NCBI RefSeq assembly: GCF_033153115.1
Contig: NW_026889755.1
Span: forward strand, 7,316,001-7,380,000
DNA: 64,000 nt
Direction of reading: 5' to 3'
DNA from: Saccostrea echinata
Taxonomy: Eukaryota
Positions 1 through 60,475 of this stretch are shown here, piece by piece. The translations under genes were made by a program, and so were the position numbers. The notes beneath the pieces are model-generated. The model saw only the letters and a program-made list of their open reading frames with translations. It did not search any database and had not been told where the DNA came from. The first letter of the stretch is position 1. Every line of letters starts with the position of its first letter.

Positions 1-1013
1 ATGTGATTCAGAAGGTTAAAGCGCAAACAGAAAAAGTAAATGTTTAACTCGTACCCTTTAAGTTCTATTCTGGTTGCGAAACTGTGGACCTGAGTAATGA
101 GTGACGTCAGATACGAAACTACGTAGACAATAATGATGACGAGAAACATGACGCTGATTTTTTTGCGCGCTTTTTGTTCCCGATTTTTATCGATAGTTGA
201 GGTATTTTGAGGTGCAATATAGGACTTTCTCACATCGTTTTGTGGGAACTCTACCATTGCAATTTTCTCAACTGTAGAACTTTGCGTTTCTTTGGAGGTG
301 ATATTAGTGTCTACATCCACAATATTACTTGTTCGATTTCGTCTGGTAGGTGATAGTGTTCTATAAATAGTTTTAGTCACTGGAATGTACAGGGCGGTTG
401 TGACGAAAATGTTTATAAAAGACAGTAGCAGCAAAAATCCGAAGTATGGTACCATAACACCTGTTCCATTTGTTCCATCATCGGAATGACAGACAAGAAC
501 AGAGATGTTCCGAGTGACATTCTGATAGTTATCTTCTACAGTTGTGCTATAGAATCCACCAAATTTCAAAACAGGTGATGCATAACCGACCGAAAATAGG
601 AAAATTGCCAGAATAGCAATTCTGCAGGATTTCCTTGACATCTGTTGACTAAAAGGACGACAGATAATTAAATACCTCTGTAATGCAATCGCGAGGATCA
701 GGTGAGCCGAAAATCCCCCGGTCAGTATCAGCAAAAAATAAAGAGTTTTGCATAAGTACACGTTAGGGTAGGTGTAGCGCTGGGTGTTGTCAAGGTGAAA
801 TTGAGTCACATTCGAAATACATCCGGAGAGATCGATAAAAGCCAATATTGGAATGAAATACCGGGTGCCTGTTTTGTCCTTAACGTATTTAGTGTACATC
901 AGAAGAACAAGAGAGTTTCCGAATATTCCAAATGCAGCTTCGATTATGTGTACCATAGTGTTGGGAAGGAGTTGTTCTGAATATTTATCGGACAAAATCT
1001 CTGCATCGGCCAT
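1..1013 (-). CDS. Class A (rhodopsin-like) GPCR, intronless, 3' end outside the window; candidate chemoreceptor
   Basis: Not in the ORF track because the stop lies outside the window. Manual translation from the ATG at 1013 gives MADAEILSDKYSEQLLPNT...FGIFGNSLV...LAFIDL...ALQRYLIICRPF...MFLVIIIVYVVSYLTSL...CLRFNLLNH. It is a clear paralogue of the ORFs at 18.7, 37.5 and 51.4 kb. Confidence 0.9.
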   Translation of the reverse strand, partial: MADAEILSDKYSEQLLPNTMVHIIEAAFGIFGNSLVLLMYTKYVKDKTGTRYFIPILAFIDLSGCISNVTQFHLDNTQRYTYPNVYLCKTLYFLLILTGGFSAHLILAIALQRYLIICRPFSQQMSRKSCRIAILAIFLFSVGYASPVLKFGGFYSTTVEDNYQNVTRNISVLVCHSDDGTNGTGVMVPYFGFLLLLSFINIFVTTALYIPVTKTIYRTLSPTRRNRTSNIVDVDTNITSKETQSSTVEKIAMVEFPQNDVRKSYIAPQNTSTIDKNREQKARKKISVMFLVIIIVYVVSYLTSLITQVHSFATRIELKGYELNIYFFCLRFNLLNH

Positions 1014-1411
1014 ATTCACAAGTGAGGCAAAGAAAATTCACTATAACTATTTTCAACTCCAATATCCAAAGGAAACTATTAGAGAAGATATAAAGAACTG
1101 GAAAACTGCTACTGGGAATAAACACATTACACCAGTGACAGAAATTGTTATGAAAAGATACCAGAAGTGGATGCTTAACACAATGTGGTAATAAGGAAAT
1201 ATGTACTCCAACTCACTTTAGTGCCTCTAAATTTAAATTGTCATAAAGGAGTGAAGGAATAGCATGAATACAACTTACAGAATAATCGTGTATCAAAGAC
1301 GTACTAACACTTCTATTAGTTATACAATGGGACAACATGGGTTACAAAAAACCCCAACATATTATAAATCCACAATCAAAGAATTGCATTTCGGGTTTCA
1401 TTTTTATTATG

Positions 1412-1652
1412 GTCGCCCGCGTGGCCCAGTGGTAGAGCGTCTGACCTAGAGTCGCGGAGTAAGGAGTTGATCATTACGTCGCGGGTTCGAATCCCACTGT
1501 GGGACGTGGAGATCGGTCCTTCGGATGAGACCATATAAACCGAGGTACCGTGTCGCAGTAGGTGCTGGCAAGAAAAAGATCCCTCACTGCTTAATGGCCC
1601 TGAGTGCCGAACATAGGCCAGAATTTGCAGCTCTCCACCGGCAAGTGGTGGC

Positions 1653-1685
<33 letters not shown>

Positions 1686-1713
1686 AGTTTAACAGCAAAC
1701 AAACAAAACAAAA
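1412..1713 (+). mobile_element. tRNA-derived SINE with V-domain-like core, full length
   Basis: Box A TGGCCCAGTGG, box B GGTTCGAATCC, core TCGGATGAGACCATATAAACCGAGG and an (AAAC)n tail. TSD TCATTTTTATTATG(G) at about 1398-1412 and 1714-1728. Confidence 0.85.
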
Positions 1714-1914
1714 TCATTTTTATTATGGAATTTTTAAACGGTGAAGGCGAGGAAGGAATAAGTAAGAGGAAGGAGTATTTCCTCTCAAATACAAAACATC
1801 TAGTTCTCACAATTCCTTGCAGGCTAATAATTCAATAGTTTTTTAGAGAGAATAAACGATTATATAACGTCAGGGAAAAAAAGGGCAGGGGACTTTTAGT
1901 AGGATCTTGGGTAG

Positions 1915-3480
1915 TGTCGTGTCGCCCTATTGGGTGACCGCACTTATCTTGGGAATTTGTCTAGCTCGCTCGCTTGTGAGAGACCCTTATTTATAATGAT
2001 TCTGCTTTTCAGCCACCAGGTCCAGATTAGGTTTGGGTGCACTGTAATAAGGAAAAGCAAAGCGTGGATCAAATTAAAAACGATGTTACTTTATTCACGT
2101 CTCCGAATAGAATGCACAACAAAAAGTCACCAGGCACAATAAAATAAATCATTATGAGTTGCTCGTAGCATTACAAACAAGTGTGCCTTAACCTACCTAA
2201 CATCTGGTGACTCATAGAGTGATTAAACAATATTAAAAGACTCACTCTATATAATAAAAAATCTAGACAATGTAATTTCCAACTGAAATACTAAAGCTCG
2301 TACTTTTGTTTACACTGGATACATTTAAATTTACCTCCCTCGACTGGAGAGTTTGATAATAATAATAGAGCCAAACAAAGAAAGGCATTATATTTCCGGT
2401 ATAAAACCGATAAAAAGTAAAACGTGTCTAACTATAAAACTACACTCTACATAGGACTACAGCTACCAAAATACAAGAAAAATCATAAGAACACACATCA
2501 AATATAAATGCCCTGATCTCAATATAATACTTTTATAATAGATTTCTATTTTAATGAAAGCTCAAATTTTGTAAACTAAAGCTCAAATTTTTGTAAACTC
2601 CAGAAATTAATTGCAAATGTTAATAAATAATTAATTAATCTTTTCTTTATAAGTTCTAGAAAAATAACTTAACCAAATAAAACATTTTTACCATACCTGT
2701 AATAAGGAAAAGCAAAGCGTGGATCAAATTAAAAACGATGTTACTTTATTCACGTCTCCGAATAGAATGGCCGAGTTGCGGCACAATTCCATTCGGAGAC
2801 CCACGCTTGCCGTGAATTATTTTGTCCAATCAAATTAGTTTTTCTTTGTTAATTTGTATCAATAATAGCCAAAATATCGTATTTTGAAAAATCACATGAC
2901 ATGAACTGACCATTACCTGAGTATTTGACCTGCCACTTAACAAGTTAATCCCCTAACAATAGGTTAATGGATTCTACTTCGTTTGATAGTGTTTTTGACA
3001 CTAGATAAAAAAGATAAAAGAACCCATAAATAAATATACAAAAAAAACACATCACCTATCTACAAATTACTGCTGTTCTCTTTTTCCAGCAAAATTACAT
3101 AATTGTATGGCTAAAGGCTTAAACAGTTTACTAATCCCTCATGCCAAATCTTCTGAGTAACACATATTATTTATTTTAGACAATTACCTGTACTTATTTT
3201 TTTCTTCAAAGACATTCCTTCTTTTTCGTCAAATAAAATACTATTACCAAATTTCTATACATATATCTGAAATTGTAACAGGAAATAAAATAAAGACTTT
3301 ACTATATAATTCCTATAAAACGAGAATACCCAAAATGTTATGTTAAAATATCCACATACATTAATCTTAACCCAAATTGAAATATTAATTGACTAAAATT
3401 CAAAGTGAAATTTTATCTTTAATCATAACTGTCCTTTCTGACATATTTCATTTTGTCAAATAAAATCTGCAACATGACTA
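1915..3480 (-). repeat. 3' LTR
   Basis: Direct repeat of 12776-14341 at a constant offset of 10861. I saw no substitutions by eye, apart from the inverted segment 3430-3480. Confidence 0.95.
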
Positions 3481-3491
3481 TTTTCCCCCTT
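3481..3491 (-). promoter_or_regulatory. Polypurine tract (AAGGGGGAAAA)
   Basis: Purine run on the element strand directly abutting the 3' LTR. Confidence 0.85.
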
Positions 3492-4029
3492 GCTACCATT
3501 GCTTTCGTCCCTGAAAGCTCAAATTTTCCTCATGGATAATGAAAAATATTTAATTTGAAAGATATCCAAGGCATCAATTACATACCCTCGACAAAAAAAT
3601 TAATACATTGTTTTTCTTCTTTTTTTGTTTTTTGTTTTATGCAATATATCACATGTTTAAAAACTACAATTAAACCTATGGATAAAAAAATATTTATATA
3701 AAAAAAAAATATATATATACATGTATATACATAAAGGCAATATTGATACCCATATATGTGTTCATTTTGAATCCCTGAGATTTTTCAATACTTTATTACT
3801 TATAAGTGGGAAAAATGAACAAACAAATATCATAGAATAGTCATCCAATATTAAAGAGTAAAAAAACCAATGAGGTCCCTGTAAAAAGAATTCATACAAT
3901 AAATGGAAAAAGGAAAAAAAATTATTGAGTTGTGCGATTCAATGCAATGTTGACAACGGAACATAGAAAAAAATTAAAACCATACAAAAGGAATTGAAAA
4001 TATTGTTAATCTTTTCTGCACTGGGTCAT

Positions 4030-6444
4030 TTAAAGGGTAACCAGCATGTTTTTGTGTGGGTTATTTAGATGGAAAGCATAATTGTTGTGTAATAAGATGA
4101 CATAGGCACTGAATGGTTGTTTTAAAATTCTTTTGAGTTTATGGTGGGTAAATGGGTTGATGGTAATGGTTGATGGAATGGTAATGGTCATGTTGGTTCG
4201 AGTGTCAGTGACTTTGAAATTTGTCCACGTAGCTAATAATTTGCATGATGGAAAAGGAGTAATTGAAATATCTGCAATTTGAGGTGTTGAAATAGTGTAA
4301 TATGAAGGACACAAGGACAATCTAGTTATAAACACCATAACACAATCACCACCTGTAGTTAATTCTAGTGCCAAAATGGATCCTTTGCATGACTTTGATT
4401 TGTACATCCAGTATAAGAGAAGTCCCAAGATGACCAGTACAACTGTACTTAAAATAACTGATGCATGAATCCAAGTAAATTCTGAAAACCAAGTTGAGCT
4501 TATGTCTGTTGGATTAGGAGTTGAAGTTTCAAGTTTTTCATAAATGAAAGAAGGGACTTTGTCAGATGTGGCATTTTGTACTTGTTGTAGAACTAAAAGT
4601 GATGTTGACAGTTTTCTGAATTTCAAGACCAACACAATACAACATCCTAAACACAGTGCTGCAATACTTAAAGCTACATATGTTAAAATGTTGGAAGTAC
4701 CTAACCAATCATCTTGAATATCAATTTTGCCATCTATTAAAGGTTCTGCCAGAGTTTTGAAAATTTTCTCATCCTTTTTGGCTGCTTTAGCAATTTTCTT
4801 TAAACTTAAATGGGCTTTTTGATCATTTACTAATATCTCATTTAAGGAATGATTATAAAATTTCAGTTCAGGAATGGACATATTTATTGGTGTAGGAAAT
4901 AAACTGTCCCCAAACACATGTTCTAATTTAGAATCATCAAAAAATTCTTGTAATAAGGCCAAATTTACAGGATGGATCACTGAAAAATTTGAAGAAGAGT
5001 TGTAACAATCCACTAATCTTGGTGCATAAAACAGAGATTGGGTTGACAATGAGCATCTACAAGGAATATGAATGATGCAAAAAGCACATCCCTTTAAAAC
5101 TTTTTGTTCCTTTGGACAATCTAAGACCAAAGTTGGTGTATTATACAACAAAACTGAGGTTGATGTGATTTCAAAAATGTTTGCTTTCAGTAAAGAAGGA
5201 ATAAATCTAAAGTCACACAATTTTTGAACTTGTTTAACATCATTTGAGTATAAAGCCATTGTACAATCAGGTTCAGTTATAGGGGTCAAGGCCCTATTGG
5301 AATTACATAGTATGGTGGGTCCATGATCACAATTAACTAAATCTTCTGCTGATAACGAGACAAAATAATCATGGTGACTTGTGATTGCAAAATAATCTGG
5401 TGTGGACAGGAGCTGTGTAGCATGCATGTCTGAGGTTACATTGGTTGAGGTAGGAACAGGTAAACTAATGACCTTGAACAATTGTAAAGGTTGTTTCTGT
5501 GTTGAGATGGGAAATTTCACAGTAATGAATAATGATGATTTATCCCTTGCATACAAAAATTTTCCATGAGAATAATAAAATGAATAATCTGTATGAATTA
5601 AATAAAAATTCTTGTATGATTTTCTAAGTTTGAAATTGATATTGGAAATGGCTCTGGTGATTAAAAATTTTGGAATTAAAAATGGAGTTATCTTTCCTTC
5701 TAATAAACTCTGGACTGCAGCTGACAGTTTATCAAACTGGGTTCTCAAAAGAGTAGCTCTGTTAACTTGTGACATTAGAATTTTTGACACATTAACAAAA
5801 GATTTTTCCAAATCATATAATTTGTTATTAAAAGCAGTTGCAATTTTTGAAATGTACTCTGAATTTTCTTTGATACCAGCAGCTAAGTTGTCCATTCTGT
5901 GATTGCTTACAGTAATGAAAGATGACAAATGAGATCCATGTTGTTGCAGTGCTTTTGCAATATTTTCTGTTTTCCTATTTAATGCATTGATGTGTCCAGC
6001 TAAAATATTGACATCATCTATAGTTGCGGTGCCAAAAATACTTTTTGAGAGTGACCCAATAAATGGAAGTAAAGCTCGGAGTTGTCTACCTTGTTTTAAA
6101 ATGTTTGTTTGAGGAACTAAAGTTTTGATTTGGCGCATGGTTTCATTGAAATGAATTAAGGTTTCTTTATGTAATCCCTGGACAAAATTTGCAAGATTGT
6201 TTAACAAAACACATCCTTGTCGAAAAGTATGAACATTGCAAAAAGGTATTCTAGATACATGAATTCTTTTTGGAAGTTTCACATGAAAGGTATGGAGCCA
6301 ATACTCCTGAGATAAAATAATGCTTGATTGTTCTTTAAAAACTACCCCATAATTGATTCTCTGTACGATTTTGTCTTCAGTTTTCTCAGGTCTAGCTTGG
6401 GCTGGAATGGTTATCACAGTCATTACTGCTAACACAAGGAACAT
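4030..6444 (-). CDS. env: Envelope glycoprotein, class I fusion (F-type, similar in layout to baculovirus F and errantivirus Env), 804 aa
   Basis: N-terminal signal peptide, RQLR furin-like site (aa 120-123) followed by the fusion-peptide-like ALLPFIGSLSKSIFG, heptad repeat region, Cys-rich ectodomain with N-glycosylation sequons and hydrophobic TM segments. Lies between pol and the 3' LTR. Confidence 0.88.
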   Translation of the reverse strand: MFLVLAVMTVITIPAQARPEKTEDKIVQRINYGVVFKEQSSIILSQEYWLHTFHVKLPKRIHVSRIPFCNVHTFRQGCVLLNNLANFVQGLHKETLIHFNETMRQIKTLVPQTNILKQGRQLRALLPFIGSLSKSIFGTATIDDVNILAGHINALNRKTENIAKALQQHGSHLSSFITVSNHRMDNLAAGIKENSEYISKIATAFNNKLYDLEKSFVNVSKILMSQVNRATLLRTQFDKLSAAVQSLLEGKITPFLIPKFLITRAISNINFKLRKSYKNFYLIHTDYSFYYSHGKFLYARDKSSLFITVKFPISTQKQPLQLFKVISLPVPTSTNVTSDMHATQLLSTPDYFAITSHHDYFVSLSAEDLVNCDHGPTILCNSNRALTPITEPDCTMALYSNDVKQVQKLCDFRFIPSLLKANIFEITSTSVLLYNTPTLVLDCPKEQKVLKGCAFCIIHIPCRCSLSTQSLFYAPRLVDCYNSSSNFSVIHPVNLALLQEFFDDSKLEHVFGDSLFPTPINMSIPELKFYNHSLNEILVNDQKAHLSLKKIAKAAKKDEKIFKTLAEPLIDGKIDIQDDWLGTSNILTYVALSIAALCLGCCIVLVLKFRKLSTSLLVLQQVQNATSDKVPSFIYEKLETSTPNPTDISSTWFSEFTWIHASVILSTVVLVILGLLLYWMYKSKSCKGSILALELTTGGDCVMVFITRLSLCPSYYTISTPQIADISITPFPSCKLLATWTNFKVTDTRTNMTITIPSTITINPFTHHKLKRILKQPFSAYVILLHNNYAFHLNNPHKNMLVTL

Positions 6445-6470
6445 GGTATTGTGGAATCCCCCAAATTTTC

Positions 6471-6497
6471 CTACAAATATATTTATAGAAAAAAAAT
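6471..6497 (-). promoter_or_regulatory. Putative splice acceptor for a subgenomic env mRNA
   Basis: Element strand reads TTTTTTTTCTATAAATATATTTGTAG|G, ending 26 nt before the env ATG. Confidence 0.55.
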
Positions 6498-6994
6498 TTA
6501 AGGTTGTGGTACATTTGTCATGAAAACAAGAACCGATCGTTATTCGTGTTTTCTAGCACTATAAAAAACTGCAGAGTTAACTACATTGATTATCTGACCA
6601 TACCACAGCAATAATTCTTTTTCTTTATTTATGTGTAAAATTTAAGGTGTTAAATGGTAAGTGAAATTTCTGAATTTTAACTAAACAAAAATGAATGGCT
6701 AGCCATTTATAAGGGGATTTTACTGTTGACCAAATGCAATAACCCATAATAACTTGCAAATACATATCTAAAACATTTAGAAATAAAAATGAGACAAATT
6801 CACTCTATTACCCTTGCTAATTTATGAGTTTTCCATTCACACTTTCTTTATCTAACTTTTCACCTCTAATCAACCTTTTTTCTTTAATAATGCAGGTGCT
6901 TTAAGCTTTGGCATTAACATACTTTATGCAGTACACAAATGTTTTGGCATAAATATTTTTCTTAATGATTTCCTTTGTTAAATGTTAGTACTTC

Positions 6995-9900
6995 TTAATA
7001 TTTTCTCTTAAAACAAGTTTTCCTAATTGTTCCTAATTTTGTGAACTTTTTGTTTATGAGTTCCATAACTTCATCATCAAAACAGTGATCAGGTTCCCAT
7101 GTTTTGGAACCATCCTCCCACTCTACTCTTATTTCTCTTCTTCCATTTTTAAATCTGCCCCTTAGAAACTTTTTAAATTTCCATTTTCTATGTGGATCAT
7201 GTATTTCTTCATCTAACAAGTCTGATTCATCTTCATTCCCTTGACCTTGGTCAATGTTTGCATCATTTGGAACAACTGTTCCTTCACCTTGATCATTACC
7301 TGTATTTGCATCTGTGTCATTTTGAGATTGACCTTGATCATTTTGTACAGTGTCATCATTCTGTCGACCTTGGGGTGGATCAACTGGATCCTGACCTTGA
7401 CCATTCTGAATCTGAATTTGTTGCTCGGGTTGCTCAAAGTTTGGTCTTTCATCTTCATCATAGTAATGTTTTAAGTTTGATGCATTCATCATTGACATGT
7501 GAAGTTTGTTGTCCGATTTTCTCTTCAGTTTATAAGTGAAGTTGGGACCAATTTCAACAATTTCATAAGGTCCCTCAGATTTATCATACAGTTTGCTAGA
7601 TAACCCCTTTGGAACCTTGTTAATTTTTATCAGTACTTGATCGCCAAGTTTGAAATCTGGGATTTTCACATTTAAGTCATGCCTAGTTTTGTTTTGCTCT
7701 TGATGCCATTTTATGTTCTCTTTAGCAATTTCGTCATGGACTTTAAGATTTTCTAGAAACTCATTGATGTAGGCTTTTGTGTCCCTACTCATGTTTTCAA
7801 GTGGTTCTAGCGCAACATCATATGGGAGGCGCATTTCTTCCCCAAACATTAAAAAGAAGGGGGAGAACTCTGTGGAATGCATTGAGGGTGCTTTTCTGTA
7901 AGCCATTAAAATACTTGCAATTAATTTTGGCCAATCATTTTGAGCTTTCCCACAATATGCCCTCAAGGATTGTGCAAGTGTACTGTTTTGTCTTTCCACT
8001 AAGCCATTTGTTTTTGGATGATAAGCTGAAGTTTGATGTTTAGTAATTTCAAAAATTTCACATAATGCCTTTACCAATTTAGACATGAAATTTGTGCCTC
8101 TGTCTGAAACAAGAACTTTTGGAGCACCAAATCGAGAGAAAATTTCTCTGAACAGTACATTTGCAGTTTCCTCTGCTGTTTGAGTTCTCATAGGGAAACC
8201 TTCCACCCATCTAGTGTATGAATCTACACAGAGTAAAATGTGTTCATGTCCCTCTTTTGTTTTGTAAAGGGGACCCAAAATATCAATGTGCCATCGATCA
8301 AATTTGTGCACCATTGGGAGAGGGTTCATTGGAGGTTTTGACGGATTGTAGTCACGTTTTGCGCGTTGACAGCGATCACAAGATTTCACGTATTCGATGA
8401 TGTCACTATGCATACGCGGCCAATAGTATTTGCGGTAGATAGCGGTCCTTACCTTTTCAATGCCTAGATGTCCTCCTCCTGCCAGACTGTCATGATAAGA
8501 CAATAATGCATCTTTTCTAAGCACTTGAGGTAATGCAATTTGCTTGATAAAGTTGAATTCTCCTTGAGGTTTACGACATCTTCTCTGAAACCAGTGATAC
8601 AACACATCCTCTACCATGCTATAATGTTTGGCTTCTGCTATCACTGCATCTCTCGTTTTGACTTCTGCTGGCAATGTTCCATCTTTAAGATATGTATAAA
8701 TATCTTGAAAATCTTGGCACTGGGATTGGAGTTGTCCAATAGTTGCTACATCCAGAGGAATTTGCTGATGTTCTTCAGGTTCATCCTCCTCCTCTATAGC
8801 TAAGGTCTCGGGTTCCTCATTTGCATATGTGAAACTTACCTCTACACAACAAGCTTCTTCTAGGGAATCCTGTTCATCCACTAATGTATCTGGAAGATTC
8901 TCTGTTTGAATACTGACTGAATTTATACTTGGCAACTTTTCTGGGTGTTCGTCTCCCTCATCTTCACTCTCTGTGTCTGAGAAATTAATATTTGAGGTTT
9001 GGCTACCCACGGATCTGACTTGGGTGTCACTTACTTCTAACTGTACTATCTCTGCTTTTTCCTCCTCCAGTGAGTTGTTCGAGTCCTTTTCTGCTGAAAT
9101 TCTGACAATACTTGTTGCTTGTCTTACCCCAGGTTGATATTCTCGTCTACTGAGAGCATCTGCTACTAAATTGCTCTTACCTGGTCTGTGTATGATTTGG
9201 AAGTTGTATTCTTGTAGCTGGAGAGCCCATCTTTCTAAACGACCAGTGTGTTTGGCTGTTTGCAGCCAAACAAGTGCTTTGTGATCAGTAATTACTGTAA
9301 ACCTACTGTGTACCAGATAAGGTCGAAATGCGGCAATGCCTTCCAGCACTGCCAAGCATTCCTTTTCGGTAGTATTGAACTTCCTCTGATCTTGACTGAG
9401 AGACTTACCTCCATAGGATACTACATATTCTCGATTATCATCATCTACTTGGCCCAACACATACCCAATGGCATTGTCAGAGGCGTCACATGTCAGTATG
9501 AAAGATCTAGATGTGTCTGGGTATGACAAAATTGGGGCAGATAATAACTTGTCTTTGAGGGTATCAAAGGCATTTTGGCAAGATTCAGACCATTGAAATT
9601 TTCTCTCTTTACATAACAAGGCATTAAGTGGGGTAGCAATTTTAGCAAAATCTTGGATAAATTTCCGATAATAGTTTGCCATACCCAGAAAACTACGTAC
9701 CTGTTTCTGTGTCTTGGGAATGGGAAACTCACTGACCGCACGGGTCTTGTCAGGGTCTACTTGTACTCCCTTACGTGATATAATGTGCCCTAAGAACTTA
9801 ACTTCTTTGACGGCAAAGTGACATTTTGATGGCTGCAGTTTCAAATTTGCCACTCTCAGACGATCAAACACTTGTTCTAAGTGTTGCAGATGTTCATCAA

Positions 9901-11365
9901 AGGATCGCGAAAAGATTAAAATATCATCCACGTAGACAAGTACCGATTTCCAATTTAACCCTCTCAGCACATTTGACATAAGTGTTTGAAATGAAATGGG
10001 GGAATTAGTAAGGCCAAATGGCATACGTTTCCACTCATACACTCCTTCTCTTGTTATGAAAGCTGCTTTCTCTCTACTTTCCTCATCCAGTTCCATTTGC
10101 CAGAATCCAGACATGAGATCTAAATTAGTAAAATAGTTTGCTCGTGCCTCACCTATAGCATCAAAAACACTTTCCAAATGGGGAAGTGGGAAGGACATGG
10201 GTACTGTAATTTTGTTTAAAGCACGATAATCACAAGCAAACCGAAATTGACCATTCTTTTTCTTTACTAAAACCACTGGCGAATGCCATTCTGAATTTGA
10301 TGGTTGTATAATACCATGATTTAACATTTCTGAAATTTGTTTTTGAATTTCTTTTGAAGCTTGAGATGATGTTCTGTAAAACTGTTGGCGAACAGGCTTT
10401 GAATTTGGTTTTATTTCAATTTTATGTTTGTAAGCACTTGTCCTTCCCAGTTCACTGAGGTCAACAGCAAAGTTACTTCGATGTTTTGCTAAAAATTTCA
10501 GTAAAACCTCTTTTTGATTTGGATCTAAATCGGAATTCTCTAAATCAAATGCAATTTCACTTGGTTTTTGACCTTTGGAATTGTCTGGATTCAACGCACT
10601 GATACTCATTGTCTCATTTTCTAAGGCATACACTTCTCGAGTTTGCACCTCACACACATTAGCTACTACAAAATTCTTTGGTAAGTACACATCCTCAAAT
10701 GTAGGATTAATCAACCTCATAACCACATCATCTCTGATACTTACCAAGCATTTAGCACCAGATAATTGTAAAGATTGCAACTCTTCATGAGGTTCTAACA
10801 GTACTTGCTCACCTAATTTTTGTCTTGAAATATGTACAGGGACATTAATTTCACACCTTTGGGGAATTTTCATAGCACATTTTACACGGGCATACCCATT
10901 GTTGATCGAAATTGAACAAACATTTGCATCACCATTGTGATCTGGAATGTGTAGTGTATTGGTCTCAGAAAACCTAAGAGTTGTGTTGTTTGCACACAAG
11001 AAATCTACTCCTAAAATGAAAGCATGGTGTAAACCATCTACCACATGAACTGAGAAGTTATAATCCTGACCATTGATATCTAACTTCATCTCTAACTTAC
11101 CTGCCACAGGTAACAATTTGCCACTAGCACCCTTAACTGATCGGAAATCAGGTGATGTCAACCTATCATGAGCATAAATAGTCTTTCTAAAGAACTCTAA
11201 ATTCATAATTGTAACAGAAGCACCAGAATCCACTAAAGCACTAGTTTTTCTTCCACCGACTTGCAGTGGAATTGTGTTCTTTGTCATGTGTGCCACTAGA
11301 TTGACTTGTGGCTGGTTGTCATGGTGCCCATCTCTAGAATGTTTTCTAAAGACAGGCGCGCACCC
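6995..11365 (-). CDS. pol: Pol polyprotein (protease, RT, RNase H, integrase, C-terminal chromodomain-like module), in frame with gag
   Basis: Motifs LVDSGAS (PR), YVDD (RT), CDAS (RNase H), H..H..CDRC, IDILGP/SDRG/VERQN (integrase DDE), GPY and VEWEDGSKTWEP. The frame is open from 11365, directly after the gag TAG. The ORF track starts it at a GTG at 11296. Confidence 0.95.
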   Translation of the reverse strand, partial: GCAPVFRKHSRDGHHDNQPQVNLVAHMTKNTIPLQVGGRKTSALVDSGASVTIMNLEFFRKTIYAHDRLTSPDFRSVKGASGKLLPVAGKLEMKLDINGQDYNFSVHVVDGLHHAFILGVDFLCANNTTLRFSETNTLHIPDHNGDANVCSISINNGYARVKCAMKIPQRCEINVPVHISRQKLGEQVLLEPHEELQSLQLSGAKCLVSIRDDVVMRLINPTFEDVYLPKNFVVANVCEVQTREVYALENETMSISALNPDNSKGQKPSEIAFDLENSDLDPNQKEVLLKFLAKHRSNFAVDLSELGRTSAYKHKIEIKPNSKPVRQQFYRTSSQASKEIQKQISEMLNHGIIQPSNSEWHSPVVLVKKKNGQFRFACDYRALNKITVPMSFPLPHLESVFDAIGEARANYFTNLDLMSGFWQMELDEESREKAAFITREGVYEWKRMPFGLTNSPISFQTLMSNVLRGLNWKSVLVYVDDILIFSRSFDEHLQHLEQVFDRLRVANLKLQPSKCHFAVKEVKFLGHIISRKGVQVDPDKTRAVSEFPIPKTQKQVRSFLGMANYYRKFIQDFAKIATPLNALLCKERKFQWSESCQNAFDTLKDKLLSAPILSYPDTSRSFILTCDASDNAIGYVLGQVDDDNREYVVSYGGKSLSQDQRKFNTTEKECLAVLEGIAAFRPYLVHSRFTVITDHKALVWLQTAKHTGRLERWALQLQEYNFQIIHRPGKSNLVADALSRREYQPGVRQATSIVRISAEKDSNNSLEEEKAEIVQLEVSDTQVRSVGSQTSNINFSDTESEDEGDEHPEKLPSINSVSIQTENLPDTLVDEQDSLEEACCVEVSFTYANEEPETLAIEEEDEPEEHQQIPLDVATIGQLQSQCQDFQDIYTYLKDGTLPAEVKTRDAVIAEAKHYSMVEDVLYHWFQRRCRKPQGEFNFIKQIALPQVLRKDALLSYHDSLAGGGHLGIEKVRTAIYRKYYWPRMHSDIIEYVKSCDRCQRAKRDYNPSKPPMNPLPMVHKFDRWHIDILGPLYKTKEGHEHILLCVDSYTRWVEGFPMRTQTAEETANVLFREIFSRFGAPKVLVSDRGTNFMSKLVKALCEIFEITKHQTSAYHPKTNGLVERQNSTLAQSLRAYCGKAQNDWPKLIASILMAYRKAPSMHSTEFSPFFLMFGEEMRLPYDVALEPLENMSRDTKAYINEFLENLKVHDEIAKENIKWHQEQNKTRHDLNVKIPDFKLGDQVLIKINKVPKGLSSKLYDKSEGPYEIVEIGPNFTYKLKRKSDNKLHMSMMNASNLKHYYDEDERPNFEQPEQQIQIQNGQGQDPVDPPQGRQNDDTVQNDQGQSQNDTDANTGNDQGEGTVVPNDANIDQGQGNEDESDLLDEEIHDPHRKWKFKKFLRGRFKNGRREIRVEWEDGSKTWEPDHCFDDEVMELINKKFTKLGTIRKTCFKRKY

Positions 11366-12751
11366 CTATTGTTTACTGTTTTGAAACGAGGAAGTGTGCT
11401 TGTGGTATTTTGAGTGTGTTACTGTGCGTGAACGTTGCTGTAAGTGCTGTGCGTAAGAAGAGCAAGTTTTCTTAAAATGACCCAATTTACCACAAAAATA
11501 ACAGCTTGACATATTAACCTTTTTAGCATTGCAATTGAAAGAATCGCATAACTCACCAGAACAGTTGTGACAGGAACCTCTCCCATTGCTTGGCCTATTC
11601 TGAGGATGTCTGGATCTGGGTCCCTGATATTGTGTCTCCTGTCTAGCCTGCCGTTGGGAATGCTGATAGCCACCATTTCCCTGTTGAAAGCGGTTTCCAC
11701 CATTTCCCTGTTGAAAGCGGTTTCCACCATTTCCTTGTTGGTAAGGCCTACGGGGTCCACCATTATTCCTCCATGGCTGGGACTCTCTCGGTGGGGCCTG
11801 CTGAGAAAATTGGGCATCGTTCACTGACTCCTGTATGGCGTTTATGTCAGTCCTCACTTCCTGTAGAGCATTCAGCAAGGCTAAATTGGTTGAGTCCTGC
11901 ACTGATGAGGTTTTCTGTCTGATTTTGTTGGCAAGTTCGGCTCGGCATGCACAGTTCCTCAGTTGTTCTAAAGAATGAGGGTCATCCTTTACCACATCCG
12001 CACTTATGTCTGGCTTCAGTCCATTAATTATGACTGTAATTAGCCAGTCCTGGTCTACACTTCGGTCATTGGTCATACTAGTCACTCGGTGTATAAAGTC
12101 CTCTACACTTTCTTGGTCCTTTTGTTTAACATCCATCAGTTGTAAATTATGTCTTGAGGACGGCTGGAATCGATTATGTAAGGCCCTGCGAATAGACTCT
12201 AGTGACGATTTTACCGTGCGGTCCAAAGCGTAGAACCAGCTTTCGGCAGCCCCTTCCAGATAAAAGGGGAGGGTGTTGATGGCGACTTCCTCTGTGAGCT
12301 TTTGGAGGTTAATAAAGGTTATGAACTTGTACCACCATTGTACCACAGACACCTTCCCATTGAATTTTTCAAGTCTAACTTTGGGAAAAGATGAGCTTCC
12401 CTGAGAGTTGGTTGTATAATTCCTGTTGGTTAAAGAAGAGGGTGGATCAAAAGTGAGTGGGATTGGGGGTTGTCTGGTTGACACTTCCCTCAACTGTCTC
12501 CTTAGGGATTCAATTTCTTCTTCTTTTTCGTCTAACTCTCGGTTTCTGCGGTCTTGGAGACGTTGTATCTCCTCCTGTTGACTTCGTAACTCTCTCTGTA
12601 ACGAACTCACTTCTTCCTGGTTGTAATCTTCCTCGATGGTGTCGGAGTTCTCCGGTGCTGAAGCATTAGATGGAGCAGGCATTTTGCTGTACTTTCTTAA
12701 GTTATATCGGTGAAAGGCTGTATTTTCTTTCAACTCCACAATATGGTTCAT
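11366..12751 (-). CDS. gag: Gag (coiled coil, capsid, Q/G/N-rich repeats, zinc knuckle)
   Basis: 461-aa ORF just after the PBS. LEKFNG...WW capsid start, QKDQESVEDF major-homology-like motif and CYFCGKLGHFKKTC CCHC knuckle. The ATG at 12682 (MPAPS) has the better Kozak context. Confidence 0.93.
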   Translation of the reverse strand: MNHIVELKENTAFHRYNLRKYSKMPAPSNASAPENSDTIEEDYNQEEVSSLQRELRSQQEEIQRLQDRRNRELDEKEEEIESLRRQLREVSTRQPPIPLTFDPPSSLTNRNYTTNSQGSSSFPKVRLEKFNGKVSVVQWWYKFITFINLQKLTEEVAINTLPFYLEGAAESWFYALDRTVKSSLESIRRALHNRFQPSSRHNLQLMDVKQKDQESVEDFIHRVTSMTNDRSVDQDWLITVIINGLKPDISADVVKDDPHSLEQLRNCACRAELANKIRQKTSSVQDSTNLALLNALQEVRTDINAIQESVNDAQFSQQAPPRESQPWRNNGGPRRPYQQGNGGNRFQQGNGGNRFQQGNGGYQHSQRQARQETQYQGPRSRHPQNRPSNGRGSCHNCSGELCDSFNCNAKKVNMSSCYFCGKLGHFKKTCSSYAQHLQQRSRTVTHSKYHKHTSSFQNSKQ

Positions 12752-12759
12752 CCGGGTTT

Positions 12760-12773
12760 CGGATTCTCCACCA
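12760..12773 (-). promoter_or_regulatory. Primer-binding site, tRNA-Ala-like (TGGTGGAGAATCCG)
   Basis: Starts 2 nt inside the 5' LTR boundary and is complementary to a ...TTCTCCACCA tRNA 3' end, as found in tRNA-Ala. Confidence 0.8.
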
Positions 12774-12775
12774 GT

Positions 12776-14341
12776 TGTCGTGTCGCCCTATTGGGTGACC
12801 GCACTTATCTTGGGAATTTGTCTAGCTCGCTCGCTTGTGAGAGACCCTTATTTATAATGATTCTGCTTTTCAGCCACCAGGTCCAGATTAGGTTTGGGTG
12901 CACTGTAATAAGGAAAAGCAAAGCGTGGATCAAATTAAAAACGATGTTACTTTATTCACGTCTCCGAATAGAATGCACAACAAAAAGTCACCAGGCACAA
13001 TAAAATAAATCATTATGAGTTGCTCGTAGCATTACAAACAAGTGTGCCTTAACCTACCTAACATCTGGTGACTCATAGAGTGATTAAACAATATTAAAAG
13101 ACTCACTCTATATAATAAAAAATCTAGACAATGTAATTTCCAACTGAAATACTAAAGCTCGTACTTTTGTTTACACTGGATACATTTAAATTTACCTCCC
13201 TCGACTGGAGAGTTTGATAATAATAATAGAGCCAAACAAAGAAAGGCATTATATTTCCGGTATAAAACCGATAAAAAGTAAAACGTGTCTAACTATAAAA
13301 CTACACTCTACATAGGACTACAGCTACCAAAATACAAGAAAAATCATAAGAACACACATCAAATATAAATGCCCTGATCTCAATATAATACTTTTATAAT
13401 AGATTTCTATTTTAATGAAAGCTCAAATTTTGTAAACTAAAGCTCAAATTTTTGTAAACTCCAGAAATTAATTGCAAATGTTAATAAATAATTAATTAAT
13501 CTTTTCTTTATAAGTTCTAGAAAAATAACTTAACCAAATAAAACATTTTTACCATACCTGTAATAAGGAAAAGCAAAGCGTGGATCAAATTAAAAACGAT
13601 GTTACTTTATTCACGTCTCCGAATAGAATGGCCGAGTTGCGGCACAATTCCATTCGGAGACCCACGCTTGCCGTGAATTATTTTGTCCAATCAAATTAGT
13701 TTTTCTTTGTTAATTTGTATCAATAATAGCCAAAATATCGTATTTTGAAAAATCACATGACATGAACTGACCATTACCTGAGTATTTGACCTGCCACTTA
13801 ACAAGTTAATCCCCTAACAATAGGTTAATGGATTCTACTTCGTTTGATAGTGTTTTTGACACTAGATAAAAAAGATAAAAGAACCCATAAATAAATATAC
13901 AAAAAAAACACATCACCTATCTACAAATTACTGCTGTTCTCTTTTTCCAGCAAAATTACATAATTGTATGGCTAAAGGCTTAAACAGTTTACTAATCCCT
14001 CATGCCAAATCTTCTGAGTAACACATATTATTTATTTTAGACAATTACCTGTACTTATTTTTTTCTTCAAAGACATTCCTTCTTTTTCGTCAAATAAAAT
14101 ACTATTACCAAATTTCTATACATATATCTGAAATTGTAACAGGAAATAAAATAAAGACTTTACTATATAATTCCTATAAAACGAGAATACCCAAAATGTT
14201 ATGTTAAAATATCCACATACATTAATCTTAACCCAAATTGAAATATTAATTGACTAAAATTCAAAGTGAAATTTTATCTTTAATCATAACTAGTCATGTT
14301 GCAGATTTTATTTGACAAAATGAAATATGTCAGAAAGGACA
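12776..14341 (-). repeat. 5' LTR
   Basis: TGTC...GACA termini. Contains a CCAAT box, an Inr-like CCATTCT (about 13625-13631), and AATAAA in both copies of a 73-bp internal repeat (12903-12975 and 13558-13630). Confidence 0.95.
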
Positions 14342-15973
14342 GTAGCATTAATTGGTATATGCATTTACACCGAAATACTAATGAAAAAAAAACATAATAC
14401 AAGGCATTTTTCCTCTACGTAAAACAGCTGATCTTATAGGCAAGGACGTAATTTCAGTGCAGGAAGGGGAGGGGGCACAACTTATGCAAAGAAAATCCCT
14501 TGACAAGTAAAAAAAAAGGTCACATGCGTCATTTTTGAGGAAGCAATATTGAATAATATATGCTGGCAATTTATTGGGGACACACACCCCAACCAATGTT
14601 TTTACAGATCTTACATTAGCCATTATAATAAGGCACATATAAAAAAAATCACAAAACAGGCACTTTCCTTAGGGTAAAAAGAAACACTAAAAGATATTGC
14701 TGGATATTTCACTGTAGGCAAAAAATTCTATTATCTTTCTAGTATAAATACATATACCAAAAATGTTACACAAGACCCTACTAAAAGTTTAATTTTTCTT
14801 TTGTGACCCCCCCCCCCCCCACAGACTTCCTCGCCTTCACAGTTTTATTATTGTGATTGCTACGCACGCTAACTCGAGAATTTTGCTTACGTTTCACATC
14901 CATTGAATTCAATATAAATGATAATTTGGACATTAAAACTTGTTTGAATGCAAAGAAAAACTCATTAGTAACGGACTAAAAATTTAAAAAAATAACAGTG
15001 TCAAAAAGTAATTTGCTCTTATTTTCAACTCCTTTCATAAGGGGGTAGAAAATTTTATCAATTGAAATCAAGCTTTAAAACATTACCAGATTTTCAAATA
15101 TTCACGGAAATAGATAGATGAATCTCAAGTCTCTCAGTATGTTTAACTAATGCAAAATTGAACATATTGAGGAGGGGATGGTAAAATTGTTATTTCTTAA
15201 AGTTATATTCACAAGGGGACTATCATTGGAAATCGAATGCAGAAAATTTCCGAAAAAGGCATACTGTCAAGTCCTTCAGAATATAACAGAAAAGTCAGTA
15301 ATTCTTATGCTTCTTTTTATTCATAATAGAAAGATAAGTGCAATTGTCCAGCGTCATTCACCAAAGGAGCCAAATGAATGTGGTTCAAACTTCGTTATGT
15401 TGAACTCGATGAGACGGAGAAAAAAACAGAGAGATATCCTAGAGTTCAAGATATTGAGGGTAAAATACTTAAGGAAAAAGTGTTTTGGACTTCAACATCA
15501 TTTTGACATATCTATATCGAAATATCCGTGTTCGAGATAAGGAAGTTCAACTGTATTTTCATAACAAATTGTTGGATCTGCAAGTAGGTATCTAATTATA
15601 GTTCATTAAGATAATAACCAAATGACGAAGATCTCCACTAATATAACAAAATGTAAAGAAAAGTGAGATGACATAATTTTAAGATTTGCATTACAAATTT
15701 GAATCATGTTCCTTTGTTATTTTCTTTCTACAAGAACTAGGGTATACATATATACTTAATAATATTATATTTATGATCGATTTTGGCTAATCATAGTTTA
15801 ATCTCTGAGATGCATTCAGGAAATGTAACCATTTACGCACACAGAAGGCGACGGACTACGATGTTTACCATGCACTGATCATGTGATTTATTATAACACG
15901 TAAAGTAATAAGGAACTTCTTAAATGCATTTTCCTTAAATTGCAAACATCTATACGTACAGTGACATAATGAA

Positions 15974-16151
15974 CATAGGCGTCGGAAGCAAATTGAAAGT
16001 GGGGTGGCTAATTGAAAGTGGGGGGGGGGGGGAGTAAACCAACGGAAAAAGGTAAGCCCCAGTTTTCAATGCCTATATTTTGTCTATTTATGAAAAAAAA
16101 AGTGAGGGGGGGCTAGCCCCCCTCCAGCCCCCCCCGGTTCCGACGCCTATG
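15974..16151. mobile_element. MITE, hAT-like
   Basis: Perfect 14-bp TIR CATAGGCGTCGGAA/TTCCGACGCCTATG, with ATGAA on both sides. Confidence 0.8.
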
Positions 16152-16182
16152 ATGAATGAACTTACGTTTTCTCTAGATGCGC

Positions 16183-16362
16183 ACCGTCACGGTAGCTCAG
16201 TCGGTAGAGCGCTCGCTTCGTGATTGAAAGGTCGTGTGTTCGAATCACGGCCGCGTCTGACCTAAAAAAATAGGTAGCAACTGTTCCTTCGCCAAGCGCA
16301 CGGCACTTTGGAGTGAAAGTTGTGGGTCTTTCGGATGAGACCTTAAGAACCGAGGCATCGCA
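16183..16362 (+). mobile_element. tRNA-derived SINE, 3' truncated
   Basis: Box A TAGCTCAGTCGG, box B TGTTCGAATC, then GGTAGCAACTGTTCCTTCGCCAAGCG and TCGGATGAGACC...AACCGAGG core. No tail. Confidence 0.7.
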
Positions 16363-16624
16363 TTTTTCTTAGGGAAAAGGGAGCAATTATGATTTTTCCA
16401 TTGAAAATGACCCTCTTCTTTAATACAATATAGGGTGCGTTATTTTGTTTTTCAGGGAAGCTTATATCAATTTTTTCATCTATTTTTGGTTAACTCAAAT
16501 TTATTGAGACTAAAAGAAAATCAGTGTCATACCAGTTATGTAAATACATATATTTGGGTAGGAAAGATAAAGTGTTGGGCAGAGCGACCTTCTACCTGTC
16601 TTCTCGTTCTCGATGAGGGCAGAT

Positions 16625-16860
16625 CAAAGGCGGATCCAGCGTCGGCGCCCCCTTCCCCCCTTCCCGTTTGAATTTATTTTTTTTTACATAAAAAAAACAC
16701 CTCTTATTTGTAAGAATTCGTCAGCTTCCGGGGGTTTTGTTCACGGACCCCCACCAGGGCTTTATCCTGGACCCACTGGGGGCTTCAAAGCATCCCCCAG
16801 ACCCCCTGCCTTCTACTGCGCCCTCCTCCCCCATTATGAAATTTCTTGGATCCGCCATTG
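16625..16860. mobile_element. MITE, hAT-like
   Basis: TIR CAAAGGCGGATCCA/TGGATCCGCCATTG; flanks CAGAT/TAGAT. Confidence 0.7.
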
Positions 16861-16999
16861 TAGATCAATTCATCAGCTTTTCGAAAGAAATATAAAATAA
16901 TGCTGTCTATTACTAAAATCTAAATCCAGAATTTTGTTTTATGCATATTTTTTCAAAGTGTTAAGTGTATCCATGGTAAAAAATGTTGATATACACTCA

Positions 17000-17133
17000 T
17001 AACGCACTTTGAAAAAATTTTTCAAAGTGCGTTGATTTTGTCCCAGATTTAACGCACTTTGAAAAATCTTTTCAAAGTGCGTTATTTTTGTCCCAATTTT
17101 AACGCACTTTGAAAAAAAATTTTCAAAGTGCGG
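17000..17133. repeat. Tandem array of about 50-bp units, each holding a palindrome
   Basis: About three copies of AACGCACTTTGAAAA...TTTTCAAAGTGCGTT joined by near-identical linkers. Confidence 0.85.
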
Positions 17134-17534
17134 AATTTTTTCATAGTGCGTTGCCACAAAGCATATCGCCAGAAACGATAATAGCAAGAGTTGTCTCTAC
17201 TTTGTTTTGTATCTATGACAGAAATACCCACTACTATTTTCGCAGACAAAAATGTAAGACTGTTTAGTCAGTGAAGATTTTCATAGTAAATGACAGATAG
17301 AGACTTTATTTGCCAACAACATTGACTTGCATTGTCCCTGTTGGCTAGGGCGACAATATAAACCCAAACAAAATGTCACAATATTTTCCAAGCTAATTAG
17401 GCGGTAGGAACGAGTGGTTAATATGCATATTTATCAAACGTTTGGGAACTATCATCATTTGCCAGTTCGATTATTCTGAAAAAAATAATACCTTTACCAG
17501 AACAAGAATTGAATACTTTATCTGTATTATCATT

Positions 17535-51413: not shown

Positions 51414-52481
51414 TTATCTTCTTAAAATGTTATTACAACAAAATTGTCTAAGTTTATTTCTGAATTTGATGTCAAAAAACCAGTAAACATACGGATTAGC
51501 AATGTGATTCAGAAGATTAAAACGGAGACAAAAAACGTAAATATTCTTTATGTATCCTTTCTTTTCTTCTGTGCTTGCAAAGTTGTAAATGTGTGTTATG
51601 AGTGACGTCAGATACGAAACTACGTAGACAATAATGATGACGAGATACATGACACTAATATTCCTTCTGACTTGTTGTGTAAGACTTCTGGCACTCCTCA
51701 AGGTGTTATTGGATTCGTCATTATTCTGTTGTGAATGTTTCCTTTTCGTATTTTCTCCAATGGTAAACAATTCTATTGACGCGATATTAATGTTGTCTTC
51801 GGGATCATTATATGCCCGATGTCTTCTGGCAGATGAAAATCTTTCATAAATGGTTTTAATCACAGGAATGTAAAGTACTGATATAATTAAAATGTTAATA
51901 AAGCAAAGAAATAGCAAAACCCCTAAGTATGGTAATATAACACTATTAGAACTGTAAGTGCCGTCGTCGGTACGGCAGACAGAGAGATCACCAGTGGCAT
52001 TAAATGATCTGAGTTTATATATTCCATTGAATTTCAAAATTGGAGATGCATAGCCGGCACAAATTACAAATATAATCAGGATTGCAATTCTGCACACTTT
52101 TTGGGACATCTGTTTACCGAACGGACGGCAGATCTTCAAATATCTTTGAAACGCTATTGCAAGGATAATAAGAGCCGAAAATCCTCCGGTGAATATGATT
52201 AAAAAATGCAACGTTTTGCAAAGAAGGGCACTAGGGTAAATGTAGCGCATGGTGTTATCCAAATGATGCTGAGTAACATTTGACACAGTTCCGACAAGAT
52301 CAATAACAGCAAGAACTGGTATGAAATACCGGGATCCCGATTTGTCCTGCACGTATTTTGTGTACATAAAAAAAGCAAGAGCGTTTCCGAAAATCCCAAA
52401 GGCACCTGCAATTAGTTGTACTATTGTGTTTGGCATTAGTTGTTCCGAATATTCTTCGGATAACATCTGTGTATCGACCAT
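51414..52481 (-). CDS. Class A GPCR, intronless, 355 aa; more divergent paralogue
   Basis: GN, LAVID, FQRY and NPYVY motifs; seven hydrophobic segments. Confidence 0.92.
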   Translation of the reverse strand: MVDTQMLSEEYSEQLMPNTIVQLIAGAFGIFGNALAFFMYTKYVQDKSGSRYFIPVLAVIDLVGTVSNVTQHHLDNTMRYIYPSALLCKTLHFLIIFTGGFSALIILAIAFQRYLKICRPFGKQMSQKVCRIAILIIFVICAGYASPILKFNGIYKLRSFNATGDLSVCRTDDGTYSSNSVILPYLGVLLFLCFINILIISVLYIPVIKTIYERFSSARRHRAYNDPEDNINIASIELFTIGENTKRKHSQQNNDESNNTLRSARSLTQQVRRNISVMYLVIIIVYVVSYLTSLITHIYNFASTEEKKGYIKNIYVFCLRFNLLNHIANPYVYWFFDIKFRNKLRQFCCNNILRR

Positions 52482-60194: not shown

Positions 60195-60475
60195 GCCGCC
60201 CGCGTCTAGAGTCGGTGAGTAAGGATATGGACCTTACTCACTTGCAGTTTTAAATTCCATTACGGGATCTGAAGACGGGTTCTTCTGATGAGACAGTATA
60301 AACCGAGGTCCCGTGTCGCAGAAGGTGCTGCCATGAAAAATATCGCTCACTGCTCAAAGCCCGTTACTGCCGAGTACAGGTCTAAATTAGCAGCCCTCTC
60401 TATGCAATTGATGGAGTCTCAATATGAGTGAAAAATCCTCGAAGGGACATTAAACAAGAACAAAAACAAACAAAA
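60195..60475 (+). mobile_element. Diverged SINE of the same family as 1412-1713
   Basis: Shares CTAGAGTCG..GAGTAAGGA, GATGAGAC...AAACCGAGGTCCCGTGTCGCAG, ATATGAGTGAAAAAT and the AAAC tail. Confidence 0.8.

Follow-up and report, generated by a model that had tools for sequence, protein, structure and literature searches.

The 64,000-nt stretch of Saccostrea echinata DNA analysed here (contig NW_026889755.1, positions 7,316,001 to 7,380,000; hereafter the window), a sequence without any N, carries on its minus strand a retroelement that runs from position 14341 down to 1915 (1915-14341) with intact gag, pol and env genes. Its two long terminal repeats (LTRs) agree base for base except in the outermost 49-51 nt of U3, which stand in opposite orientation in the two LTRs. 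The oyster element is one more member of the published group of 'ancient errantiviruses' with an F-type envelope protein (Env), an element of known kind with an end structure apparently not previously described. We think it likely that the lineage to which it belongs, one with a chromodomain-like integrase tail, flips the first ~50 nt of U3 whenever a new copy is made.

Inversion of the U3 tip between the two LTRs

The bodies of the two LTRs, at 1915-3430 and 12776-14291, agree in all of their 1516 bp (1516/1516), where the match ends. Reverse complementation of the 49 nt that follow in the 3' LTR (3431-3479) reproduces 14292-14340 exactly, and reverse complementation of the first 51 nt of the 3' LTR, counted with the last base of the polypurine tract (PPT), yields the 5' LTR exactly. 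In the sense of the element and counted from its flank, the PPT, the tip of the 3' LTR is PPT-T-AGTC...GGAC-A-GTTA; that of the 5' LTR, counted from the target site duplication (TSD), is TSD-T-GTCC...GACT-A-GTTA, so that TGTCC lies flush with the TSD. The first-pass annotation of this DNA had described LTRs without visible substitutions; this holds for the LTR body and fails for the U3 tip, and the inversion, which is the unusual feature of the element, had been overlooked.

The integrated termini of the oyster element are TG...CA. As had been noted, a perfect TSD (GTAG) stands on both sides, flush with these ends; it is 4 bp long, the flanks agreeing at this length only among the lengths 3-8 that were compared. 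Two other placements of the ends were rejected. A 2-bp TSD with an element ending in GT is less parsimonious than CA with a 4-bp TSD, and TGTTG, which lies 5 nt inward in the AGTC form, would as an attachment site match the U5 end at only 4/9 bases; no loose contig end was seen at 3474, the position of TGTTG, among the 24 of 59 loose-end rows listed. No report of an inverted or hairpin-flipped LTR tip was found in the literature, of which most subscription journals and Repbase were not covered, so that a prior mention is possible. We know of no Drosophila errantivirus with a flipped LTR tip.

The inverted segment folds into one imperfect hairpin, all pairs of which are centred on the inversion axis. 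The number of centred pairs in the window tip was equalled by 1 of 1000 shuffled sequences folded as DNA and by 12 of 1000 folded as RNA, while by energy 28 of 1000 shuffles folded equally well as RNA. By energy alone the hairpin is thus modest, and by its centred pairs it is unusual. The AGTC tip agrees with the U5 end at 8/12 bases (7/9) and the flipped tip at 7/12 (6/9). Both arms of the hairpin resemble the U5 end (7/9 and 8/12 bases), as expected if the stem is an integrase substrate.

The tip in relatives, sequencing runs and control elements

A related locus from a metagenome, L001, shares 78% identity with the window element in reverse transcriptase (RT) and 51% identity in Env. Its PPT is followed by T-AGTC and, after a middle part that has diverged and is 4 nt longer than that of the window, by GGAC-A-GTTA, and the motif of the far arm, GGACAGTTA, is kept; only GAC of this motif is paired in both window and L001. 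The 55-nt tip of L001 again folds as a centred hairpin (3 of 1000 shuffles were as good). The sequence of L001 stops before any 5' LTR.

Four sequencing runs (X1, X5, X6 and X7), all in the form of assembled contigs, contain further pieces, 32 of 99 being listed. Among these, the AGTC form extends across PPT and tip in contigs of three of the four runs, from three studies: X1 (3331-3606, 0 differences), X6 (3377-3529, 5 differences) and X5 (3424-3526, 12 differences). As AGTC follows the PPT in X1, X5, X6 and L001, this form is inherited and old, though the new copy in the window has TGTCC outside. The TGTCC tip in turn abuts other sequence in contigs of all four runs (six listed loose-end rows, 3429-3435), with at least three different flanks, and in X1 and X5 a TGTCC-first tip precedes the 73-nt repeat of the LTR (joints from 2114/2118 to 3484).

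Among 60 other loci of at least 4 kb, eight carry a complete LTR pair (L013, L014, L015, L020, L060, L065, L068 and L078). All eight are distant Ty3/gypsy elements, and their tips are not inverted; the pair of L078 shows a 3-nt difference at the tip. In the distant relatives with F-type Env L006, L009 and L093, TG follows directly after the PPT, and the flipped tip is consequently not universal in such elements. The start after the PPT is unclear in L092 and unreadable in L007 and L094.

Scans of viral_contigs by RT and by alignment returned no close relative (one scan gave 7 loci at 29-41%), nor did a search of genome_contigs with a single RT as query. Searches with the tip pattern gave 0 loci in three instances and none in 2 genomes in another; one such search returned 3 loci without similarity to gag, pol or env, which were taken as chance matches. 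The LTRs of L008 and L009, searched against G001 and G002, returned their source contigs alone. Two metagenome-assembled genomes (MAGs) of Sedimenticola carry several animal retroelement contigs with F-type env (L006-L012, L089-L095), evidently DNA of the host that went into the bin of its symbiont; Ty3/gypsy contigs are present in many of the other MAGs listed, too.

A probable flip of the U3 tip at each new copy

The standard replication cycle makes both copies of U3 from a single source, the 3' U3 of one RNA. Since both come from one template and the LTR bodies are identical at 1516/1516 positions, the difference between the tips arose at or after the synthesis of complementary DNA. The same one-template logic has been applied to the U3 of TARE1, a copia element of tomato with TA...CA ends (PMC3701649).

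In the mechanism that we favour, the genomic RNA would carry the AGTC form of U3, and plus-strand DNA primed at the PPT would begin with the hairpin sequence. The 5' end of this strand would fold back on itself, ending at GGACA, and the minus strand, on completing the left LTR, would meet a nick where the stem of the hairpin begins. Two continuations can be envisaged. It is possible, if doubtful, that the minus strand is joined to the 5' end of the hairpin and that integrase then cuts after CA in the conserved CA/GT; this geometry would make both arms form the integrase substrate and would account for the likeness of each arm to the U5 end. The other continuation, which we rate as rather unlikely, is that RT jumps to the opposite strand where the quasi-palindrome is symmetric and copies the tip in reverse. 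On both routes the strand to be transferred would end in CA-3', and gap repair would write the TGTCC form into the 5' LTR alone, giving precisely the 5' LTR sequence seen in the window. The AGTC form would stay in the 3' LTR and pass to the next RNA, and the flip would be needed again in every cycle. Whichever route is taken, the hairpin flip probably yields the CA end that integrase requires.

More tentatively, and with some doubt, a clade of mollusc errantiviruses may have an obligatory extra step of DNA synthesis, the RNA holding the left attachment site in reverse, in the far arm of a hairpin behind the PPT. If so, the site would stay hidden until the hairpin is linked to the minus strand and then opened at CA/GT, each provirus would have non-identical LTRs from birth, and integrase would act on a hairpin end in a flip/flop-like manner. 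Parvoviruses and poxviruses have imperfect terminal hairpins that occur in two inverted-complementary forms, called flip and flop, and arise by nicking and copying of the hairpin end. By analogy, the tip of the window element would resemble these termini in being a hairpin with two inverted-complementary forms; it differs in that parvoviruses and poxviruses have DNA genomes and nicking enzymes dedicated to the task, whereas here the two forms stand in the two LTRs of one provirus and the flip would provide the attachment site for integrase. TARE1 resembles the oyster element in that a non-TG start of the 3' LTR is inherited through RNA. It differs in that every copy has the change in its 5' and its 3' LTR alike, which is what the standard cycle leads one to expect, while the LTRs in the window are unequal (PMC3701649, accessible part).

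Several points weigh against a flip at every cycle. Observed are the anatomy of the element, an inversion that is exact and a hairpin that is conserved, while the steps of the mechanism are all inferred. Folded as DNA the hairpin is weak (-5.1 kcal/mol), and 79 of 1000 shuffles were as good (11 of 200 in another test). The AGTC tip, which matches the U5 end better than its flipped form, may itself be a usable attachment site. Those TGTCC-tipped contigs that could be traced come from relatives outside this family, with divergence setting in after 40-55 nt. Purines dominate the sequence ahead of TGTCC in X7, and probably also in X1, so that it could be the PPT of a canonical relative. The flipped junction of the window family (the joint from 3430 to 3480 on the opposite strand) appears in no run contig, although contigs easily lose short branches. 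Finally, one complete copy only has been observed with both tips, and the argument from conservation consists of two full tip sequences.

Alternative origins of the inverted tip

The alternative that survives best, though we regard it as unlikely, is that the family normally integrates with AG...CA ends, that the hairpin has another role, be it in the priming of the plus strand, in cleavage by RNase H or in keeping the RNA stable, and that flips are occasional, the copy in the window being a by-product of a template-switch inversion before integration. The match of the AGTC tip to the U5 end at 8/12 bases speaks for it, as does the fact that a flip at a terminal hairpin would put TG at the end automatically. 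It also agrees with published cases, as far as the accessible parts of the papers go: elements with non-TG termini amplify well elsewhere, such as TARE1 with TA...CA (PMC3701649) and Troyka with CG...CG ends (PMC12440569), template switching is a recognised source of microinversions (PMC11566620), and reverse transcription can yield asymmetric LTRs, as in deletions of human immunodeficiency virus 1 (PMC9278108). On this account, however, the sole sampled copy has to be a rare product, and the retention of GGACAGTTA in L001 beyond its paired bases goes unexplained. Moreover, in none of the 24 of 59 loose-end rows listed does a contig of the LTR body end in the AGTC tip and continue into host sequence where the PPT would be expected.

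It is very unlikely that a single microinversion after insertion, or an assembly error, altered one LTR tip. Quasi-palindromes are established to be prone to template switches during replication, and all four runs consist of contigs and not of raw reads. A change in the 3' LTR is nevertheless excluded by the same AGTC form in X1, X5, X6 and L001, and one in the 5' LTR must have happened within the short time in which no substitution arose in 1516 bp and must end exactly at the TSD. As to an assembly error, the flanking inverted repeat of only 1 nt would be too short to mislead a k-mer assembler.

The identity of both LTRs at insertion is a basic rule of the replication of retroviruses and LTR retrotransposons and underlies LTR dating and every LTR finder. 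If the flip at each cycle is true, it constitutes a programmed exception to this rule and points to a new reaction of RT or integrase on a hairpin end; annotations of such elements would then have misplaced their ends, overlooked their TSDs and given them false ages. In comparison with this end structure, the envelope, the chromodomain-like tail and the long LTRs of the element matter far less.

Anatomy and age of the element

An open reading frame (ORF) scan of the minus strand found gag, pol and env as three stop-free ORFs, as the first-pass annotation had it, and the predicted primer-binding site (PBS) and PPT were located beside the LTRs (Table 1).

Table 1. Features of the errantivirus in the window
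Feature	Position	Strand	Remarks
TSD, left copy	1911-1914	+	GTAG
3' LTR, 1565 bp	1915-3479	-	AGTC start behind PPT, GACA end
73-nt repeat in 3' LTR	2042-2114; second copy 2697-2769	-	AATAAA inside; pyrimidine tract and CAG at end
U3 tip, internal AGTC orientation	3430-3480	-	49 nt flanked by T and A; imperfect hairpin
PPT	3480-3497	-	precedes 3' LTR; conserved in L001
env, 804 aa	4030-6444	-	signal peptide, furin site RQLR 120-123, F-type ectodomain
Candidate env splice acceptor	6471-6500	-	last intron base 6471; P0001 gene model has same junction
pol, 1456 aa	6995-11365	-	protease, RT, RNase H, integrase (H2C2, rve, SH3), chromodomain-like tail ~aa 1396-1449
gag UAG stop and stable RNA stem-loop	11320-11368	-	candidate readthrough signal
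gag, 438 aa	11366-12682	-	from ATG at 12682; capsid-like domain and CCHC knuckle
Consensus splice donor GTGAGT within gag	11551-11556	-	in frame with env acceptor at 6471
PBS	12756-12773	-	2 nt behind 5' LTR
5' LTR, 1566 bp	12776-14341	-	TGTCC start, GACA end
73-nt repeat, 5' LTR copies	12903-12975 and 13558-13630	-	
U3 tip, external TGTCC orientation	14291-14341	-	exact reverse complement of 3430-3480
TSD, right copy	14342-14345	+	GTAG

The absence of substitutions between the LTRs sets their divergence below ~0.2% at 95% confidence, from which we infer that the insertion is very young. The initial description, an intact Ty3/gypsy element with env that entered a bivalve genome very recently, was borne out, the closest named Env being that of Saccostrea cucullata (93%). 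The order gag, protease, RT, RNase H and integrase, assigned with Pfam, the PBS and PPT, a TSD within 4-6 bp and TG...CA ends are those of Ty3/gypsy elements (Metaviridae). Identical direct-repeat LTRs at insertion, also characteristic of these elements, are not found here, as the first 49-51 nt of U3 are inverted; the inverted tip is a variant trait and leaves the Pol-based placement unchanged.

The two exact 73-nt repeats in each LTR are spaced 655 bp apart (2042-2769; 12903-13630). An X6 contig steps back 655 nt across these repeats, and X1 and X5 contigs join the tip straight to the repeat; judged by these joints, LTR length seems to vary among relatives. A small stem-loop lies directly upstream of the PPT both in the window (3480-3525) and in L001 (6340-6385), with z of about -1.7 and -1.9.

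Expression of gag-pol and the integrase tail

The pol gene is in frame with gag behind one TAG (11366-11368), and a stem-loop that follows this stop has z -3.5, with 0 of 200 shuffles as good; readthrough, as originally proposed, is therefore likely, and Gag-Pol is probably made by reading through UAG. A single stop after an in-frame zinc knuckle was found in 5 of 13 other loci that reach the protease (TAG in L006, L007, L008 and L011, TGA in L010), and the context TAG-GGGT is the same in three of these five. Since this layout of knuckle, stop and protease recurs, readthrough would, judged by sequence, be a trait of the clade. The gag-pol junction of Moloney murine leukaemia virus likewise combines an in-frame UAG with a structured 3' stimulator, and frameshifting is the common mode of gag-pol expression in animal elements (PMC5009743, accessible part). 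The murine virus differs in that its stimulator is a pseudoknot, compared with the long stem-loop predicted here, and that its Env class is unrelated.

The chromodomain-like integrase tail that had been proposed received support through homologues alone. Pfam gave no direct chromodomain match on the Pol of the window, while a profile built from the 21 Chromo-annotated rows (of 56) matched aa 1396-1449 with E 5e-5, and the tail is 34% identical to the chromodomain region of P0141. By this measure of sequence the tail is chromodomain-like and diverged. The close named Pol homologues are all molluscan.

Envelope protein and splicing

Among 8000 candidates scored, 176 homologues of Env were found, with S. 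cucullata as the best. Many of them, including P0008, carry the Baculo_F domain; the Env of the window itself gave no Pfam match. It has two hydrophobic segments (about 584-613 and 655-683); two membrane segments are mentioned for gB-type Env alone in the accessible parts of PMC13524379. Sequence searches of the PDB with Env returned weak heptad-repeat matches only. An AlphaFold model from 87 rows reached a mean predicted local distance difference test (pLDDT) score of 77, and a fold from the single sequence (pLDDT 34) was not usable. A Foldseek search of the PDB with the former placed the F proteins of respiratory syncytial virus (RSV) and human metapneumovirus on top (RSV F with E 1e-10, at TM scores of only 0.25-0.40), and in BFVD F-like glycoproteins were matched. 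Together with the signal peptide and the furin site, these matches agree with the F-type Env of the first-pass annotation; signal peptide, furin site, fusion peptide and transmembrane anchor, the hallmarks of an F-fold Env, are present as judged by predicted fold and motifs.

The second-best match in BFVD was A0A145VUZ2, an uncharacterized 801-aa protein of Abalone herpesvirus, almost equal in length to Env (E 3.5e-25, 830 columns, 16% identity, TM 0.39). The predicted structures hint at an F-like protein shared between mollusc errantiviruses and a mollusc herpesvirus. The C-terminal part of Env forms a beta-rich domain of ~120 aa (aa 684-804; 4033-4395) that is conserved and confidently modelled and bears no Pfam name. 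It matches 196 representatives at E ≤0.001, many as the tail of proteins of 750-860 aa, and atlas leads for this domain of a homologue were all under 0.9.

Env is probably made from spliced RNA. The candidate env acceptor named in the earlier annotation was found, ending at 6471, and the same junction in the P0001 gene model lends weak support. Splicing from 11557 to 6470 would fuse most of Gag, without the CCHC knuckle, ahead of the Env signal peptide. A gag-env fusion is annotated in all 11 long named Env homologues that were examined, in gene models that may be artefacts; no gag-env splice joint was seen in the run contigs (X1, X5, X6, X7), a result that was not counted as evidence.

Relation to published errantiviruses and host range

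Intact env-bearing Ty3/gypsy elements have been described across animals by Chary and Hayashi (eLife 2026, PMC13524379), who favour vertical descent; statements on this paper refer to its accessible parts. In 45 of its 46 mollusc rows, 36 are from bivalves and 9 from gastropods, and all have ENV_F. LTRs of 1.3-1.85 kb occur in 8 of 35 mollusc rows with LTR coordinates and a chromodomain in 12 of 19 scored mollusc elements. The combination of F-type env, chromodomain and long LTRs, which the earlier annotation had not recognised from a named family, is hence already published for bivalves. Its claim of novelty falls for the architecture and stands for readthrough, since the main text of PMC13524379 contains neither 'readthrough' nor 'target site', nor was an inverted LTR tip met there. 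The LTRs in that study were called by self-BLAST, which would not report a flipped tip. No Saccostrea element is present in the 45 of 46 mollusc rows, and the sole match to 'Saccostrea' in 7 supplements is a screened genome.

Like the ancient errantiviruses, the window element has uninterrupted gag, pol and env between LTRs. For those elements PMC13524379 also describes an RNase H together with a 'mini' domain in the bridge of Pol and an 'ancient' clade in its RT/connection tree. It shares the order gag-pol-env and a Ty3/gypsy Pol with Cari_errantivirus_4 of Crassostrea ariakensis, the LTR of which (1541 bp) likewise exceeds 1 kb, and with Mare_errantivirus_1 of Mya arenaria, whose PBS 12-mer is one base off that of the window. 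An F-type Env with furin site is common to the ancient errantiviruses of Mollusca, Annelida and Cnidaria and the window element; the chromodomain of the former may have its counterpart in the chromodomain-like tail of the latter. The Drosophila errantiviruses gypsy, ZAM and Idefix also combine a Ty3/gypsy Pol with a baculovirus-F-like Env and are infectious between ovarian cells; they differ in forming a separate 'insect' clade (PMC13524379).

A quick Env tree of 25 rows (the window and 24 named homologues of 120 listed) joined the window with Saccostrea (support 100), then other oysters (100), three Pinctada rows (97) and Mytilus in the set (100), apart from clams, scallops and abalone. Env identity to the window is 93% for Saccostrea, 62% for a cluster with Crassostrea members, 35-55% for Pinctada, 36-49% for Mytilus and 35-39% for clams, scallops and abalone. 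The tree follows host kinship, in agreement with the vertical descent proposed in PMC13524379. The horizontal transfer among bivalves suggested by the first-pass annotation finds no support in these sequences, in which we see no sign of it. It is highly improbable that the element stands for a lineage not yet described that is infectious at present and spreads from one bivalve species to another: the intact Env with signal peptide, furin site and predicted F-type fold and the near-identical LTR and env pieces in runs of two or three organism labels, possibly close kin, would fit it, but the kind is already published (PMC13524379), Env identity drops with host distance and the tree puts the window with the oysters at support 100.

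Genomic neighbourhood

The errantivirus sits between two paralogues of a cluster of single-exon rhodopsin-family G protein-coupled receptor genes (1-1000, 18693-19805, 37534-38631 and 51414-52490), which are 67-81% alike in DNA. A broken tyrosine-recombinase retroelement of DIRS/Ngaro-like type lies at 42314-45664, with a gag-like ORF and RNase H-like and phage-integrase-like pieces that gave weak Pfam matches. Sequences resembling tRNA at 1415-1505 and 16186-16258, with a related copy near 60206-60481, are probably the heads of repeats similar to short interspersed nuclear elements; Rfam returned a single tRNA-like match and nothing else over 1-17000. Three tandem units of 50 nt, each with an internal palindrome, occupy 17000-17149.

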